From positions 9,610,001-9,674,000 of the forward strand of contig OZ360246.1 of the NCBI GenBank assembly GCA_977017645.1: DNA of 64,000 nucleotides, in the 5' to 3' direction. Positions within the stretch are counted from its first letter, which is position 1. The number at the start of each line of letters is the position of its first letter. This stretch comes from Torpedo marmorata (taxonomy: Eukaryota). The translations under genes were made by a program, and so were the position numbers. Shown here piece by piece: positions 4,322 to 57,931 of this stretch. The notes under the pieces were generated by a model. The model saw nothing but the letters and a program-made list of their open reading frames with translations, was not told the DNA's origin and ran no database searches.

Positions 4322-5452
4322 CCGTATATTTTGGCGTATAAGTCGAGTCTTGAAACCCTCAAAAATCTCTCAAAAAACGGTGGTCGACTTATACGCCGGA
4401 TATATTTTTGAGACCTTAAAATCAGCTCAAAAACCGCTCCACGCTGATTCGGCGTATGTCGACCCATGAAAAACAGATTTGGCGTATAGGTCGACCCTGG
4501 AAGCACCTCCCCACCACCGGTGCCGCCGCTCCCCAACACCTCCCCACCGCCGGGCACCGCCATAAACCACCCAGACGTTCTACAATTGTAGAGCCCGAGG
4601 TCCCCGCTCCTACCTGGGAGCCTGAGGTCGCAGCTCCTGCCCGGTAAGCCGAGGCTCCTGGCCGGTAGGGTGAGGTTCCCGCTCCTGCCACGTAGTCCGA
4701 GTCCGTTCCCGCTTCTGCTGAGGAGAACGAGGTCGCCGCTCCTGCCCGGGAGAACAAGGTCGCCACTCCTGCCCGGGAGAACGAGGTCCCCGCTCCTGCC
4801 CGGGAGAACGAGGTCGCCGCTCCTGCCCGGGAGAACGAGGTCGCCGCTCCTGCCCTGGAGAACGAGGTCCCCGCTCCTGCCCAGGAGAACGAGGTCGCCA
4901 CTCCTGCCCGGGAGAACGAGGTCGCCGCTCCTGCCCAGGAGAACGAGGTCGCCGCACCTGCCCGGGAGAACGAGGTCGCCACTCCTGCCCGGGAGAACGA
5001 GGTCGCCGCTCCTGCCCAGGAGAACGAGGTCGCCACTCCTGCCCGGGAGCCGACACATAACCGTGGTTCCTGCACCGAGCACACTTGGGCAGCGAGGCGA
5101 CTTCTTCGATGCGGATAGCACCGCACCCGATGTGGAGAATGGAGTCGCCAGTCACCGACTCTGGCTGCAGCCGAAGCTGAAGACTTGGACCCAGCTCCGT
5201 TTGGCATCTTCCCGGCCAGAAGCAAAGGTTTTTTTTACTGTTTTTTTTTTTTTTACTTACTTGCTTAATTTACAGCTTTGTTACTTGGCAATTGGGGTGT
5301 TGTAACAAATTTTGGGTTGTTGCTGGGAGGCCCGGACAGCCCGAAAATTGGGGTTCGACTTATACACCGGATATACAATAAAACCATTAAAATGAGGCTG
5401 AAAAAGGGGGGTCGACTTATCCGCGAGTCGACTTATACGCCGAAATATATGG
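4322..5452. mobile_element. Non-autonomous TcMar (Tc2/pogo-like) DNA transposon
   Basis: 25-bp TIRs CCGTATATTTTGGCGTATAAGTCGA / TCGACTTATACGCCGAAATATATGG (2 mismatches); TA on both sides; internal subterminal GTCGACTTATAC repeats. Confidence 0.88.
4722..5049. repeat. 27-bp GC-rich minisatellite (about 12 copies, plus degenerate copies from about 4595)
   Basis: Unit GGAGAACGAGGTCGCCGCTCCTGCCCG; gives 9-residue periodicity in the ORF track. Confidence 0.95.
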
Positions 5453-6744
5453 TAATTATTTCTAGCATTATTCAATGAAGTGTGAGCTCAATGAACGTAA
5501 GAAGCTAGAATCTTTCATGCGGCTGGGTGAATACAGTTTTGTTACCTGAATAACTTTGCTATCTGTGCACAAATCTCAACTATATGGGTGCATCCTTGGA
5601 GAATGCTACATGTCCTGATTAGTCGGGCATCAAAGATTATGGGGAGAAGGCCGGGCAGTGGGGCTGAGTGGGACAATGGATCAGCTCATGATTAAATGAT
5701 AGGGCAGACCAGGTGGGCAGAATAGCCTATATCTTCTGTGTCTTCTGTTGCTTTATATTGGTAGATAAGTTTTAATCGGCACTAAAATATTCCATTCACA
5801 GCCATTCGATCACAAACATCACTGTGTGCTAGTACCTCATGTGTCTCTGAAAATTGTTTATTGCAACATGCTGTTGAATAAAGGATACAGTTGCTTCGGG
5901 ATTCATACATTTTGGAGCAGATGTCTTAAGTAGCCTCTACTTTCCCTCCCACCCACCTTGTATCTCTGCACGTATTAGTGCTTAATTATTCTGCAGGTCG
6001 CGTGTGAAGAGAACTTCAAAATGATGCGCTTGCAACCATTAGTATGTGTTGCCACGGCAACTGGAGACGATACCTTGCAGACTCCTGACGGGGAAGCTCG
6101 CTGCATGATGTCAATTCTGCAGATAGTAAAAATAATATTTCAGGGCAGATGTGAATTAAAATTACTGAGGGACTTTGCACTTTTATGGATTAAGTCATCC
6201 AAGTCCAGACATAGGATGCAAAGCAGCATCACTGATATGGTTCAATATCATCTTCACAATTTATATTGCTTTATGTGAAATGCTTAATTTAAATAACATT
6301 TAGGGCATGCCAATAGTGAAGGCACTAGTGAATGTAATAAAGACATTAATTTTACAATGTGTGGCATCAACAGAAGAAGCTGAAATTCACTACCTCAAAT
6401 TTGCTGCAGCATTTAAATAATGTAGCAGTAAATAAATGTCGTGGTCATAACAGCCCCGATTAACAATCAGCAGTACAAGCAAAGCTCTTGAGTGAAACAT
6501 TCTTAACCCACCACCTGTCCCTTGACTCCGTCTTTTTCCACCAATTCATTTCCCTAATTCCGTGATCAACCCCCCTCAGATAGGGCTCTAAATATTCTCA
6601 CCTCTTAGTCGCTCCTTCTTCTACCCTTTGTACAACTTCCCTTTTCTCTTGGAAGCTTCAAGTTTAACATTTTGATCAAGCTTTTGTTCTCTGTCCTAAT
6701 ATCTCTAAATGTCATCGTCACGCAGCAGAGGAACAGGTCCTCTA

Positions 6745-8751: not shown

Positions 8752-8880
<129 letters not shown>

Positions 8881-10102: not shown

Positions 10103-10651
10103 CAGGTGCTCCCCTACTTACGATGGTCGATAGCGTGACTGTCGTTATTTACTAAAGTAAGGTAATCGCAAGCATCGTTGATTTTTACAATAAACTTTGA
10201 TAATTCCTCTAAGGTGAATTCTTTGTAGCCTCCTTGGTCAATCACTTCTTTTAGTTCAGTTGGAAAGCTTGCAGGGACTGATACAGTGCTGTCGGGAGAG
10301 AGCGGGGCAGTGGGATCAGTGTGGGAACTGATACAGCGCTGTCGGGAGAGAGCGGGGCAGCGGGATCAGTGTGGGAACTGATACAGCGCTGTCGGGAGAG
10401 AGCGGGGCAGCGGGATCAGTGTGGGAACTGATACAGCACTGTCGGGGGAGAACGGGGCAGTGGGATCAGTTTTGGGAATGATAAAGGGCTGTAGGGAGAG
10501 AGCGGGGCAATGGGATCACTGGGGCAGTGGGGACTGATACAACGCTGTCGGTGTTATACAATGTATACCTGTATTCTTTTTCGACTTAGATTTTTTCGAC
10601 TTACGATGGGTTTGCTGGAACGTAAACCCATCGTAAGTTGAGGAGCACCTG
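10103..10651. mobile_element. Tigger-like TcMar MITE containing a minisatellite
   Basis: TIRs CAGGTGCTCCCCTACTTACGATGG / CCATCGTAAGTTGAGGAGCACCTG; TA on the right, TG on the left. Confidence 0.85.
10277..10551. repeat. 50-bp minisatellite (about 5 copies)
   Basis: Unit ACTGATACAGCGCTGTCGGGAGAGAGCGGGGCAGCGGGATCAGTGTGGGA starting at 10277, 10327, 10377 and 10427, then degenerate. Confidence 0.93.
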
Positions 10652-11222: not shown

Positions 11223-11408
11223 CTGTTAACGTATTTGTACATCTGGCCATGCTGAATTTCCACTTTAGGTTGATTTTTCAGTAAAGGTTCTTCAATTGCT
11301 TTCTTTTTAGTGCAGAATCCCTTAATAGCTTCAATGCAATGCTGTAATCGCTCTGAAGAGCAGTTTAGAGTGAACTGAAGCTGCATATTACCAGCTAAAG
11401 AGATGTGA

Positions 11409-11516
<108 letters not shown>

Positions 11517-13492
11517 TGATCTTAACAGCTAGGACAGTAGTCGTGGAAAAGTTTACTTGTTTTTACTTGATTCTCGCAATTATTGATTTGCATCCTCTCC
11601 TTTGTTCATTTGACCATTTATTGTTAATTCTTTTGTTTTTTTGTGCAGCCACATTTCTGTTCCTTGTGACTTAATTACTCACAGAGTGTGTTGGCGAGTG
11701 AGACACTCGTCTTAATGCTTGTCAGCTATTTTCTTAAAAATTAATCTCCATCTTCTATGGAATTTTTAAAAGAAGATTAGATTGGATTATTTATTGGAGT
11801 TTTTGCGTCCTGGAATTGAACACAATTCCTTCGGCAGTAGTGCTGGTACAACTCTGGATTGCTTTGTGAAACTGAGCCAAGTTGTACATTATTTTGGGTG
11901 CACTTGTGAAAGTGTTAGTGTTGAAAACCACAGTTACGTGGCACCAGTCAATGATGTGCATGTCAATAAAGCAAAGTGAATATGATGGAGAGAAACCCGT
12001 GTTAAATTTGAACACACATATTCACACAGTGGAAATGCTTTGGCACCTGTTTTGATGATCCACCATTCTCGTGATTTTACGTGTTGAGTTTGATTGAATA
12101 GGTTGTGTGTGATGTTCTACCATTTGAATTGATAGGACCACAGTTCAAACATTTTGGTCTTTGAGAAGTTACAGTGCATGGAATTAGGAATGGAGTACTT
12201 TTATTTCAACTGTGTGTGCACCCCAGTGCAAAGGGATTTAATTACGTGGTTGTTATCACGTTCCTGAGCTTCATGTTTTTGTTCGTTTTCTACCATTGAA
12301 TCCCGCGCAGATTTACAACCGGACATCATCTGAGTTACTTGAGTCAGATGAAATATTTACTCCTGGAAAGGTTGGTTTAAGATGATCGGTTCATGAGACT
12401 GAAACTAAACTCAATAGTGGAAAATTGCTGTTGGTATAATCCCTCCTATGAAAATGCTCTATTGAGTTTGCTAGCTTAAAAAGTGTTCTCTTTTGCTATT
12501 TTCAGTCAAAGCCACACTTTTAGTGATGTTAACTTTCACTTATTGCTCTCTGTTCAATGGAACAGGCAGAGGCAATTTAGTAGGAGACAAATCTTCCATA
12601 GGTCTAACCTCGCTGCCTGCCTTCTTAAAAACCTCCACCAACTTGGCCTCTGCAACCACTGTGGAGAATTCCACAGGTTCCTGACTCTCCGAGTGGAGTG
12701 TTTCCCCATCCCTATCCAAATGTCATGCACGGTGTTCTGGGATGGCATCTCCCAGCCAGGAGAAATCTCCTCCCTGCATCCAACCTCTTGCACCCTGTCA
12801 GAATTCTACCCACATCCACGAGATCTCCATTCTAGTAAATACAGGCCAAGTTGAGGCAATCTCACCTCGTGACAGTCCCATCATCCCAGGATTAGTCTGG
12901 TGAAATCTTGTTCTTCATTTTTGTCTAGTATGTCCTTTCTTGGGTATTGGACCAGAAATGCACACAGTCCTTGAGTGTGGTTCAAGTTTATTATCATCTG
13001 ACTCTACATATGCAGCCAGACAAAACAGCATTTCTCTGGACCATGGTGCACACACATAAATACATAATACATTTCTCTCACTGCACATAATAATCATATA
13101 CATACATAAAATGTAATTAAAAGTAATATGTCTAAATATTCCAATTTGTCACCATTTAAATAATTCTCTTCCTTTCCCAACTTCAGATTAATCCAAATTA
13201 TATTGCTTGTACCATATACGTAAACGCTCATTCAACTTGTCATTATTGTTCCATCAATCTTCTTCATGAATGTACTCACCCTCTGCAGCCTCCTGTTGAG
13301 AGAGTTCCAAAGATTCACTTCTGTCTGGGTGAAGAAACTTCTATAGAGCTGTATGTTGGCCCCTTAGTTTGAGATTCTCAGCCCTTTTCAAAACACTCCT
13401 GCAAGATTTGTCATCCCTGTCTGTCAAACTCAAAGAATATTGTACATTTCTATGAGATCACCCTACCCACCCTCCTCCTCAAGACCTTAGTT

Positions 13493-13722
13493 CAGCTCGG
13501 CTATGCCCCTCCACCAGGGCTCTGCTCACATTTTATGGGCCCCCTTCCCTGTGAAGCAGTCAAGGTTTGGTTTCTTCCATACTTCTCTCCTACAGACTAC
13601 ATAAAAAAAAACATTAAAAATATTTGTGTGAGGTGAAAAGAAAACAAGGCTTTTACTTAAATTTGCTGTGGCCCCCAGGGGTGGGGGGAGGGGGTGGCGT
13701 TGGGACCCGTTGAGAATGGCTG
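13493..13722. mobile_element. hAT-type MITE (degenerate left end)
   Basis: Same body and right TIR (GTTGAGAATGGCTG) as 509-710; flanks ccttagtt / ccttagag resemble an 8-bp TSD. Confidence 0.75.
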
Positions 13723-14845
13723 CCTTAGAGCTTAGATCTATTCTTCTTCATGTGACAAACCCACAATTCCAGGAACCAATCTTTGCTCAATCCATCTTTT
13801 GCAAGTACATCCTTCTTTGGATAGAGATACCACATTTGTGCATACTACTCAAGATGGGGTCTCATTAGGGCTTTCTACAAAAATGAAGCAAAATATATCC
13901 ACTCTTGTTTCTACTCTTGCACTCAAATCAACTTGCAATAAAGCCTTCCTAATTGCTTGCTAACCCTGTGTGAAACTTTTCAGTGATTTCTATATACAAG
14001 GGTACCCAGATCCATCTTAACTATTTAAAAATATTCTGCATTTCTTTTGTTTTGACTGATGTGGATTACTTCATATTTTGTGTGTGTATGTGTTTTTCAT
14101 TTTTGAATTAAATTATTCTTCATGAATATTCAGTAAATGACATGTAGTCGGGGTGCATCTTGCAGTTTCCTAATTAATTGATAGAGTAAGATTGCATTGC
14201 AAATCTTAATTCCATACAAACCACATAATGCACATTTATATTGCAGTTCTCAATTGGGATCAGAATTTGTTTTGAAATTAGCAAGCTGGAGATACTCAAG
14301 GTTCTTGAATTGATCCAAAGAGGGCAAACATGATAAATTGCAGACCAATTTTAAACATTAACAATCTCTTGCATATTCCTACTTTACCTCCATGCTTGTA
14401 AATGTGTGCAAGGAGATTGTTGGCTCCAATTAAAATGTAAAATGAATGGAATTTGCTTTGTGGTCTGGAATAAAATCCATCGTATTGGGGGTTGTTTTGG
14501 TTTCAAGTATATGCCATTTAGCTGGTGAATTAAATGAAGTAGAATTTTGTTTCTGCTTCATCTTGTTTTTATCAAAGTGGTCCTGGTTGTCCTGCTGTGA
14601 TGTGAGGGGATCATATTTTACACAATTTTGCTTCAGTGCTAGTGTTTCAAGTCTCATGATCCGAAAGCTAAATCCGTTGTAAATTCTCTGCGGTCTCATT
14701 TCACCTACACTATTTTGTGTTATAATTCACAGTATTCTTTGTTCATTTTATCTAAGCCTCTTCAGTGTTGTATGTCCCGTTACACTTGTGCTTTTCTGTC
14801 GCTTTTCACCTTGGGATTTCTGCTTCCTGCTGTCTTGTTGATTAG

Positions 14846-14908
14846 ATTTTGACTTCAAGGCCATGTGACCTTTTTGCTGATTCCTATGGAGTGTTCTCAC
14901 CCAAAAAG
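14846..14908 (+). CDS. KIF1B: Candidate alternative cassette exon of KIF1B (ILTSRPCDLFADSYGVFSPKK)
   Basis: Pyrimidine tract + attag acceptor; 63 nt stop-free in phase 0-0; AAG|gtcggt donor; last 7 codons encode GVFSPKK, as in the upstream exon, with three synonymous differences. Confidence 0.65.
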
Positions 14909-15667
14909 GTCGGTATTTGCTATTTATGGTGTTAAGTGGATTGTCCATAACTAGTAGTGCTCATTTCAATGCATAAAATACTGTGTTAACTCTGTCATGT
15001 GTATATCACGTGACACCCATTTCATGAGATGCTTTGCAATCCACTGCTCCAAAATTGATAGTTAGTGTGGACTCTAGATTGCTTGGCCAGTTTTTATGCT
15101 GTGTGACGTAGCCATTACATACAAATAAACAGAAGTAGGCTACTTGTCCCATTGATCTGTCTCGATACAATAAGATCATGGCTGATCTGATTCCAACCTC
15201 AGCTTTGTAAATCTGTGTACCCTAGTAAGAAATAGCAGCAGGAGTAGGCCGTCTGCCCTTTATTGTCTTGTTCTATTTATGACTTGAAAATATCCAAAGT
15301 TTCTGCTTCTGCCACCTTTTGGGGAAGAGAGTTCAGCAACCCCAGACCTTCTGAAAATAATAGATTTACCTATGTCTTAAATGGGTAACTCTGTATTTTT
15401 AAACAGTGACCACTAATTCTAGATTCTTGCAAAGCTACTTGTGCATTCAGTTCCCCTAGAAATAGTCACGCAGCAGGAAAGCAGGCCCTTCGACCCAACT
15501 CTTCCATGCTAGCCAAGTTGCTGAGCTGGTCCCATTTCTCATGTCCCATTTGGCCCATGACCCTCTAAACTGTTCCTCTCCATGTATCTGTCTAAATATC
15601 TTTTACACATTATAATTGTACCCACCTCTACAACGTCTTCTGGCAGCTGGTAAATAATCACTCGCTT

Positions 15668-15920
15668 GGGCGGCATGGTTAGCGTAGCGGTTAGCGCAAC
15701 GCTATTACAGCGGCAGCAACCCGGGTTCGAATCCGGCGCTGTCTGTAAGGAGTTTGTACATTCTCCCCGTGTCTGTGTGGGTTTCCTCCGGGTGCTCTGG
15801 TTTACTCCCACCCTTCAAAACGTACGGGGGTTGTAGGTTAATTGGAGTTTTGGGCGGCACGGGCTCGTGGGCCGGAAGGGCCTGTTTACCCTGCTGTATG
15901 TCTACATTTTTTAAAAAAAA
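15668..15920 (+). mobile_element. tRNA-derived V-SINE (HE1-like), full length
   Basis: tRNA-like head with A box (TAGCGTAGCGG) and B box (GGTTCGAATCC), V domain GTTTCCTCCGGGTGCTC, A-rich tail. Confidence 0.88.
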
Positions 15921-28819: not shown

Positions 28820-30268
28820 GATGCAGACTCTGATAGTGGGGATGACTCAGACAAGAGATCTTGTGAAGAGAGTTGGCGATTGATAACCTCCCTGCGAGAA
28901 AAGCTGCCCCCCAGCAAGCTGCAAACCATTGTAAAAAAGTGTGGCCTGCCCAGCAGTGGGAAAAAACACGAACAGATCAAGGTTTACCAGATTCCCAAGA
29001 GACGTAAAATTACCAAAGATCCCAAATGGGTGACGTTCTCAGACCTTAAGATCCAGGCCGTGAAGGAGATTTGTTATGAGGTGGCTTTGAATGATTTCAG
29101 GCACTCTAGGCAGGAGATTGAGGCACTGGCGATTGTTAAAATGAAAGAGCTCTGTGCTGCCTATGGGAAGAAGGATCCCAATGAGAGAGAATCTTGGCGA
29201 GCTGTTGCAAGGGATGTGTGGGATACAGTGGGTGTTGGAGAGGAGCGAATTGAAGACATCGCTTCCACTGTGAAAACTCCCAGTGACGTGGACGTCCTCA
29301 AGTGCCATGTGGACAAATTGGAAAATATATTGCAAGAGGTGAAGAAGCAGAACAACACAAAGGAAGAAGAGATTAAGATTCTGCGAAACAAAATGTTGCA
29401 GATGGAGAAAGTTTTGCCACTGATGGATGCGCAAGACCAGCCTGGGAAATCCACCTCCCGGGAGAAATGCGGGGAGAATGAAGATACGAAGCACAAAAGC
29501 GAGCAGAGCATCGGTGATCCCAGAGACGAGGATCAACTGAGCAAGGAAGAACGCGTCTCAAAGCTAATGAACGAGGATCCGGAATTCCGGCGTGGCCGTT
29601 TGCGATGGATGCGGCTGGAGCAGATCCGATTTAAGAATCTTCAGCAGCAGGAGATCACGAAGCAGCTGAGGAGGCAGGGAGCGCCGCACAGGTTCATCCC
29701 ACCCGAAGACCGCAAGCTGCGGTTTCCCTTCAAAAGTAACCCCAGCCACAGAAACTCCTGGAGCCCCGGGACCCACATCATCATCACTGACAAGGAGGCC
29801 GTGGAGTTTGTGGTTGAAAAGGATTCGAAGGAAGGGAGTGACACCGAGGAAGTTGCGAGCGAAAAGAAAGAGCATGACCTGCCTCAGCCGTGGCGCCAGT
29901 ACGGGTCGGGCAGAGGGTACAACCAAGGCCAACGCAGCCAGCAGTACCAGAGGAATGAGCAACAAGCCCGCTGGCGCAGCAACTCGTTTAACAATGGACA
30001 GCACCGTGGCTTGCGTCGACATGCATCGAACTCGACCGAATCATTACCATCATCTGATTGCTGCCGAACAACAGAATCTTCCATGCACCTTCAGCGACGC
30101 ATCCATCAACAGCCTTGCCACTATAATGGCGGCTCCTCAGAAAATTGTTTCCACGCAGTTGAATACTTGAGAACTGACAGACCATACCACCACCATTTCA
30201 CTCCCCCTCCGCGAATGCGCCGACAATACTCGGAGCCAAATCTAAAATCACGGGAAACAACTGTGTAG
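28820..30268 (+). CDS. KIF1B: KIF1B-alpha-specific terminal coding exon
   Basis: T-tract + aaag|GAT; 482 codons DADSDSGDDSDKRSCEESWRLITSLREKLPPSKL...RMRRQYSEPNLKSRETTV*; C-terminal class I PDZ-binding motif ETTV typical of KIF1B-alpha. Confidence 0.96.
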   Translation, partial: DADSDSGDDSDKRSCEESWRLITSLREKLPPSKLQTIVKKCGLPSSGKKHEQIKVYQIPKRRKITKDPKWVTFSDLKIQAVKEICYEVALNDFRHSRQEIEALAIVKMKELCAAYGKKDPNERESWRAVARDVWDTVGVGEERIEDIASTVKTPSDVDVLKCHVDKLENILQEVKKQNNTKEEEIKILRNKMLQMEKVLPLMDAQDQPGKSTSREKCGENEDTKHKSEQSIGDPRDEDQLSKEERVSKLMNEDPEFRRGRLRWMRLEQIRFKNLQQQEITKQLRRQGAPHRFIPPEDRKLRFPFKSNPSHRNSWSPGTHIIITDKEAVEFVVEKDSKEGSDTEEVASEKKEHDLPQPWRQYGSGRGYNQGQRSQQYQRNEQQARWRSNSFNNGQHRGLRRHASNSTESLPSSDCCRTTESSMHLQRRIHQQPCHYNGGSSENCFHAVEYLRTDRPYHHHFTPPPRMRRQYSEPNLKSRETTV

Positions 30269-50564: not shown

Positions 50565-50702
50565 GCAACGGTTGGAACTGATGCGTGAGATGTACGATCG
50601 TGCTGGCGAAATGGCTTCCAACACACAAGAGGAGAGTGAGGGCATCATGACAGGCAGCGACCCGTTCTATGACCGCTTCCATTGGTTTAAACTCGTGGGA
50701 AG
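50565..50702 (+). CDS. KIF1B: KIF1B-beta exon
   Basis: gtgcag|GCAA; [45 protein letters not shown]; AG|gtactt; 138 nt. Confidence 0.97.
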
Positions 50703-57682: not shown

Positions 57683-57931
57683 TTCCCCAATTTTCCACGG
57701 CTGTGTGAACGAGCACCTTGCTGATCGCACCCCCTCGCCCACCTTCTCCACAGCTGATTCTGACATCACTGAGCTTGCTGATGAGCAGCAAGACGAGATT
57801 GAGGATCTGGATGATGAAGCCTTTGTGGACGATACTAGCTCAGATCTGGGCAACGAAGAGGGCTCTGACATCTTCGGCGATGGGCAGGATCCGTTTTATG
57901 ACCGGTCCCCATGGTTCATTTTGGTGGGAAG
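57683..57931 (+). CDS. KIF1B: KIF1B-beta symmetric (skippable) exon, acidic insert
   Basis: ctccag|TTCC; SPIFHGCVNEHLADRTPSPTFSTADSDITELADEQQDEIEDLDDEAFVDD...DPFYDRSPWFILVG; AG|gttggt; 249 nt, phase 2-2. Confidence 0.96.

Follow-up and report, generated by a model that had tools for sequence, protein, structure and literature searches.

Does an intron of the Torpedo marmorata KIF1B gene hold a second copy of the CC1-FHA linker and, if so, does that copy replace the first, duplicate it or serve some other end? The window, i.e. the whole 64,000-nt stretch of DNA analysed here, contained the middle part of KIF1B: the best named matches of its first exon were to Mobula KIF1B (92-93% identity), and the window exons were collinear with catshark KIF1B upon exon-to-protein mapping. 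The long KIF1B-alpha terminal exon was present and open at about 28853-30265, and intronic tandem arrays were observed at 4722-5049 (27-nt unit x12) and 10277-10518 (50-nt unit x4.8). The features around the linker are listed below, with a slash marking an exon border.

8752..8831, + strand: exon U (ESEKIIAEL...EAIRME), CC1 region, ending in phase 2; from catshark KIF1B mapping
11426..11501, + strand: constitutive exon A, end of CC1 and CC1-FHA linker; kept in 324/324 counted proteins
12311..12370, + strand: cassette exon B1, 60 nt, phase 0-0, cag/.../gttggt, IYNRTSSELLESDEIFTPGK; from the catshark insert match
14766..14845, + strand: pyrimidine-rich tract before B2 with its TAG acceptor; 78 nt free of AG
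14846..14908, + strand: cassette exon B2, 63 nt, phase 0-0, ILTSRPCDLFADSYGVFSPKK; from catshark isoform identity
14857..14859, + strand: internal AAG, proposed second acceptor in B2; its AG forms the first two letters of an Arg codon
17781..17860, + strand: constitutive exon C (TPHLVNLNEDP...), FHA domain start; from catshark KIF1B mapping

Exon A was found to end in GGA GTT TTC TCT CCG AAA AAG/gtagac at 11501, and B2 in GGA GTG TTC TCA CCC AAA AAG/gtcggt at 14908. The three differences between these GVFSPKK codons each fall at a synonymous third position, just as a sequence-only reading of this DNA had reported, and the letters also agreed with its TAG acceptor (14843-14845), which gives the 63-nt, phase 0-0 exon encoding ILTSRPCDLFADSYGVFSPKK, and with its alternative AAG acceptor (14857-14859), which gives a 49-nt exon. 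The chance expectation of GVFSPKK followed by GT in the 6.3-kb intron was 2.5e-7, and a degenerate GVFSPKK pattern matched three places in 6.22 Gb of genome (exon A, B2 and exon A of a paralogue), with one match for the reversed control. On a matrix built from 13 window donors, the B2 donor ranked first among the 376 GT sites of the intron. The TAG was the first AG after the 78-nt AG-free tract, which is 72% pyrimidine; it ranked 102 of 309 and the internal AAG 49 of 309 on a crude acceptor matrix (12 sites) that cannot separate the two. Four YGCY motifs were counted in the last 60 nt of the tract, and no clear branch-point consensus was found upstream of B2. UGC motifs in this tract had also been singled out: three do occur in the 60 nt before the acceptor (1.0 expected; none at B1), but the point is a weak one, as the constitutive acceptors here have 0-4. 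Weakly scoring acceptors would suit a coincidental match or a decayed pseudo-exon; that explanation, however, has a negligible probability given the chance expectation and the three genome-wide matches, and is refuted by conservation of the peptide in 24 species. Judged from these comparisons, B2 is a real, old and coding-constrained cassette exon of the CC1-FHA linker, with the TAG as its predicted acceptor.

A protein search with the first exon returned 120 proteins, seven of which carried an insert between GVFSPKK and TPHLVNL. The catshark insert comprised 41 residues: 20 that map to B1, followed by ILNPRPCDLFADSYGVFSPKK, which is identical to ray B2 at 19 of 21 residues. B1, a second hidden in-frame cassette exon that was overlooked in the first reading, gave the best match to the catshark insert in the intron (score 61; next-best site 24), and its donor ranked second of the 376 GT sites. 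Searches and cluster look-ups together yielded 370 proteins. The count was made on the 324 that extend across the linker, the remaining 46 being 39 short fragments and seven longer rows. An insert of 38-42 residues was present in 156 of the 324 counted KIF1B proteins, a share that is inflated because one search used the insert itself as query (120 of its 283 matches listed). The carriers were 24 species, namely 3 sharks, 5 ray-finned fishes (sturgeon and 4 teleosts), the frog Ascaphus and 15 birds; example models include XP_038677281.1 (catshark X3), XP_075459642.1 (Ascaphus X6), XP_009295104.1 (zebrafish X20) and XP_058858558.1 (sturgeon X2). Both units and exon A were present in all 156 insert rows, and none held B2 alone, which departs from the lone 63-nt insert first envisaged; since gene models predict exon combinations, this joint presence does not amount to read-level proof of co-inclusion. 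Nor can the exon be called hidden, as it had been: RefSeq-type models of these species contain it, and a chicken exon table has an entry that matches it in size and order.

The internal AAG had led to the proposal that a 49-nt form of B2 replaces exon A (11426-11501) in a mutually exclusive manner, so that the linker is swapped. The phases would allow this (49 nt and 76 nt both leave remainder 1), the AAG scores slightly higher than the TAG on the crude matrix, and the KIF1A-type exon described below also carries an AG at the matching offset. Exon A, however, was replaced in 0 of the 324 counted proteins, no choice of one exon or the other was observed, and the seven longer rows left uncounted also had no B2 sequence in the linker. 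The AG is accounted for by its Arg codon, at which two teleosts have Lys; the TAG precedes it as the first AG after the AG-free tract; and an AAG acceptor used after exon A or B1 would read GCC ATG TGA, with a stop at the third codon. We thus regard the swap as highly improbable and drop it. Mutually exclusive duplicated exons are resembled by B2 in its tandem copy, its shared donor position and its phase-compatible internal AG, but B1 and B2 are added together after the parent exon and never replace it in these proteins.

The relation of the two cassettes to each other was clearer than their relation to exon A. B1 and B2 are neighbours, are both phase 0-0 and have significant likeness, as is the case for tandem exon duplicates. 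With the bird proteins, 0 of 2000 shuffles scored as well as the true B1-B2 comparison and 1 of 2000 did so without the last seven residues; for the ray, the counts were 4 of 1000 shuffles with DNA and 19 of 2000 with protein. In a comparison of 12 sequences, B2 had 21 residues in every lineage and 10 invariant columns (P6, C7, D12 and G15-K21), and B1 varied between 17 and 21 residues. The B1 tails have drifted between lineages (FTPGK, FSADQ, YSSNQ, FPTNK), and the ray B1 has drifted from shark copies, with GGA where sequencing run X5 (see below) reads AAA. By this measure, B1 and B2 are taken to be tandem copies of one unit of about 21 residues. A second internal exon duplication was observed elsewhere in the window, where neighbouring exons at 50565-50702 and 57683-57931 have near-identical ends (DPFYDR...LVGR); exon 57683-57931 lies within an 83-residue segment that is variable among bird isoforms.

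When the 5' parts of B2 and exon A were compared, 276 of 1000 DNA shuffles and 1410 of 2000 protein shuffles scored as well, so that likeness was confined to the last seven residues and did not extend over the full length. B2 is therefore not a whole second switch. The sequence-only reading had proposed an old exon duplication kept under coding constraint and an isoform that duplicates or swaps a motor-activation switch; age and constraint stand (10 of 21 positions invariant), but the copy of exon A does not reach beyond the shared tail, and duplication of the entire switch is excluded. Because B1 and B2 are homologous to each other and B2 resembles exon A only in these residues, it is likely that a copy of the exon A 3' end, together with its donor, seeded one cassette, which later doubled. 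The AG within B2 begins an Arg codon, as does the AG/A junction before exon A, and the former may be a fossil of the exon A acceptor.

The third genome-wide match to the GVFSPKK pattern belonged to a gene with an FHA exon that scored highest against KIF1A (55 bits, vs. 44.6 for KIF1B and 21.3 for KIF1C). At the same linker position as the KIF1B insert, this gene contained the following candidate, which appears to be unannotated.

L012:4701-4763 = G000:C42:114323201-114323263: KIF1A-type candidate exon, 63 nt, phase 0-0, IEHRRAAQMLLESLGVFSPKE; from sequence only

Its borders read ttcctgttag/ATT.../gtttgt, and its score of 33.9 was the best among 443 GT-ended sites, the runner-up reaching 2.8. 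It has the length, the TAG/ATT start and the Arg5 of B2, shares LLES with the ray B1, and has an AG at the offset of the B2 internal AAG; its donor lies outside the 15 best of 446, and one UAG lies downstream. Without the last seven residues, likeness was marginal (54 of 2000 shuffles scored as well against B1 and 286 of 2000 against B2). As the paralogue holds one similar 63-nt exon, the cassette probably arose before KIF1A and KIF1B separated and would thus have a common origin in the two genes, although independent duplication in each may instead have produced this pattern. A third, likely KIF1C-type, paralogue was also observed (L017, G000:C2889:84911-87988), with introns of GC-rich simple repeats; the 1.5 kb of intron looked at was simple repeat, and in the part read these repeats apparently made a 3149-codon open frame.

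Conservation in and around the cassettes was further assessed using sequencing runs. Of 13 runs searched, 10 covered part of the stretch and none covered half of it, with no RNA run on record. Four runs from other species, their tissues unrecorded, were placed on 11300-15700, a stretch without exons U and C. Run X1 contained a 2561-nt contig matching exon A only, in spliced form, which fits the skipping form. In X1 and X2, B2 was found only together with flanking intron, and in X1, X2 and X5 the segment 14792-14920, or nearly all of it, was kept along with its intronic flanks at 8-10 differences over 124-129 nt, the tract being conserved from 14792 (X1, X5) or 14796 (X2). X5 also conserved 12217-12444, where 3 of the 19 differences listed (of 22 in all) fall within B1 and 11 in the preceding 60 nt, as well as two islands between the cassettes.

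14123..14287, + strand: conserved intronic island, 22 differences in X5; candidate splicing element
14399..14659, + strand: conserved intronic island, 36 differences in X5; candidate splicing element

Within the 55% of run X8 that was read, B2 was uncovered, and the 15 of 121 joints listed for the four runs on 11300-15700 included none that enters or leaves B1 or B2. The matches in these runs are evidence for conservation of B1 and B2 and not for use.

An indication of where the cassettes are used came from chicken. Dataset S1 of PMC9303857 lists two KIF1B exons, GgaEX2015682 and GgaEX2015683, of 63 nt each and separated by 1.25 kb, both of which precede the 201-nt and 27-nt retina exons of KIF1B; of the 18 supplementary files of that paper, one contains these identifiers, as table rows. 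Their tabulated inclusion (PSI) was 19.1 and 21.5 in retina, 0.05 and 0.02 in other tissues, and 0.3 and 0 in neural tissue, with the other KIF1B retina exons at 40-56 in chicken retina vs. approximately 20 for this pair. The near-equal values of the two exons fit co-inclusion of B1 and B2, to which they were matched by size and order rather than by sequence. Compared with the longest eagle isoform, eight other eagle and two lizard isoforms differed in segments of 6, 9, 14, 26, 40, 67 and 83 residues, and also in a linker segment of 42 residues; because the others differ in size, only this linker segment suits 63+63 nt. Like B1 and B2, the chicken exons form a closely spaced in-frame pair upstream of the 201-nt and 27-nt exons, and together they amount to the 42 residues inserted in birds; unlike them, the ray B1 measures 60 nt and the ray intron between the cassettes 2.5 kb. 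Of the 24 species for which two or more beta isoforms were sampled, 5 had both the insert and a 67-residue retina exon, 17 had neither, and each of the two was found singly in 1 species (Fisher p 0.0008). Depth of annotation and relatedness confound this association, from which the frog was dropped after its pattern failed. The 201-nt and 27-nt (LFLDLDLPR) retina exons were themselves intact in the ray, downstream of the window (L007:about 1439-1639 and L008:about 5453-5479).

The sizes of B1 and B2 exceed 27 nt, as in the RetLONG class of retina exons, and fall outside the 3-27 nt range of SRRM3/4 neural microexons; general neuronal inclusion was likewise not seen, with neural PSIs of 0 and 0.3 for the size-matched chicken exons in the PMC9303857 table. 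According to PMC9303857 and PMC4991804, MSI1 promotes long retina exons via downstream UAG, and such motifs were found 3' of B2.

14952..15138, + strand: seven UAG motifs 3' of B2, candidate Musashi sites; from a motif count

The 250 nt downstream contained 7 UAG for B2, 6 for B1 and 7 for the 201-nt retina exon, with a background mean of 2.4 (at least 7 in 5, and at least 6 in 22, of 489 background windows); constitutive exon C had 6, the 27-nt retina exon 4 and 13 other window donors 0-6. Weak acceptors and strong donors would lead to skipping of B1 and B2 by default, and Musashi-type activation through the downstream UAG motifs, acting on this default, has in our estimate a little less than an even chance of being the mechanism. 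By analogy with the chicken exons, and given co-annotation with the retina exon, we have good confidence that inclusion in Torpedo marmorata would be retina-restricted.

Gene models of some lineages bear on that expectation. The insert was absent from every annotated ray and skate isoform sampled. This absence, the lack of a junction among the joints listed and the drift of the ray B1 would suit exons that are conserved in T. marmorata but used in brain or elsewhere outside the retina, or no longer included at all. We consider this rather improbable: frame and acceptors are intact, as are the donors, the two highest-ranked of the intron; B2 is nearly identical to its catshark counterpart (19 of 21 residues), the ray and skate isoform sets mostly omit the 201-nt retina exon from their models too, and neural PSI in the chicken table was at most 0.3. 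The zebrafish retina list of PMC9303857 Dataset S1 contained no 60- or 63-nt KIF1B exon, though a zebrafish model carries the insert. For mammals, no insert occurred among the 120 listed of 283 insert-query matches (117 bird, 3 frog), the human and mouse retina lists of Dataset S1 had no 60- or 63-nt KIF1B exon, and the exons were absent from six mouse Kif1b rows of PMC4991804. These results hint at loss of the insert in mammals and agree with the earlier remark that the exon is not known from mammalian KIF1B, though they constitute an incomplete test of it. Nine isoforms of the lizard Pogona carried 67-residue and 9-residue retina exons and none a linker insert; squamate loss is possible on the basis of these models.

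With retina-type inclusion, the protein would gain 41 residues after the first SPKK, which would separate the CC1 linker from the FHA domain. According to PMC9314371, CC1-mediated inhibition is released when the CC1-FHA dimer forms. Exon A matched the KIF1A CC1-FHA linker structures (PDB 4EGX, 4EJQ) at 24 of 25 residues in a PDB search, and a PDB search with B2 gave 0 matches. An AlphaFold2 model of the catshark CC1-insert-FHA segment (28 near-identical rows) had a mean pLDDT of 49.8, with residues 39-151 below 50 and the FHA domain poor too, so that the structure check suggested with the original observation, as carried out on the insert variant, was too poor to draw on, and any effect on the motor given here is a prediction. 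The KIF1A linker is said, in work of Huo from 2012, to form a beta-finger (about residues 474-486) that ends in GVF, and it is followed by an SPKK that we take to be a phosphosite (S487 in KIF1A). The insert would probably loosen the CC1-FHA coupling that governs motor autoinhibition and dimerisation. As for how, the GVFSPKK of B2 may take the place of the exon A copy beside the FHA domain, which would keep its neighbour with CC1 on a longer tether, a detail held tentatively and at somewhat under even probability. The B2 copy, which is FHA-adjacent in the insert form, is invariant, and the B1 tail, away from FHA, has drifted; drift of a tail with no FHA contact fits such a replacement. On this simplest reading, the slack gained by CC1 would shift autoinhibition or dimerisation, much as the nearby Kif1a exon 13 does (PMC12436618).

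In the main rival reading, the insert would chiefly provide a segment to which a photoreceptor adaptor docks or which a kinase phosphorylates, with CC1-FHA coupling unchanged. Extra S/T-P-x-K sites point in this direction, with a second SPKK from B2 in all lineages and a B1 TP site in cartilaginous fishes, as do the invariant P6, C7 and D12 of B2, which have no exon A counterpart; the retina microexon insertion sites of PMC9303857, moreover, are mostly surface loops. Such a role nevertheless leaves unexplained the conservation of all seven GVFSPKK residues directly before FHA, and the proline-directed site of B1 has been lost in birds, frog, sturgeon and teleosts, so we hold it to be unlikely, if not to be dismissed. 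Our preferred reading, that of duplicated, always-paired KIF1B cassettes that are likely to be mainly retinal and to loosen CC1-FHA coupling, is on the whole probable. A fuller history, in which a linker-exon copy made before the split gave rise to one KIF1A exon and the KIF1B pair, and in which a switch in a photoreceptor subset was rewired by strand replacement and lost in mammals, is doubtful at present.

In-frame alternatives are known from other parts of the kinesin-3 autoinhibition region, e.g. Kif1a exon 13, the inclusion of which raised dimerisation, ATPase and velocity (PMC12436618), and from inserts in the KIF1B hinge that are ascribed to Matsushita 2009. These NC-CC1 hinge exons precede CC1, whereas B1 and B2 follow it, lie between linker and FHA, and are built of duplicated units. 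The RefSeq-type KIF1B models have the insertion point and two units of the ray, but are automatic and carry no tissue or function. A description of the linker insert or of its function was not found in the literature searched (subscription journals and VastDB were outside its scope), in which the origin and function of the cassette pair are thus undescribed. B1 and B2 are best seen as a catalogued, likely retina-type cassette pair, the exons being already listed in gene models and one supplementary table; this prior database presence limits the surprise. The present analysis adds to it the copies in the ray, the construction of the pair from duplicated units, the case against the swap and the hidden KIF1A-type counterpart.

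Activation of kinesin-3 motors is gated by the CC1-FHA region, close to which alternative exons are known that alter motor activity (PMC12436618). With its conservation in lineages from sharks to birds and its place exactly where the linker meets the FHA domain, the insert would offer a natural probe of this gate and of the tuning of photoreceptor transport. The KIF1A-type exon, if expressed, would add an extra isoform in a disease gene family and would make the cassette older than the duplication that gave KIF1A and KIF1B.
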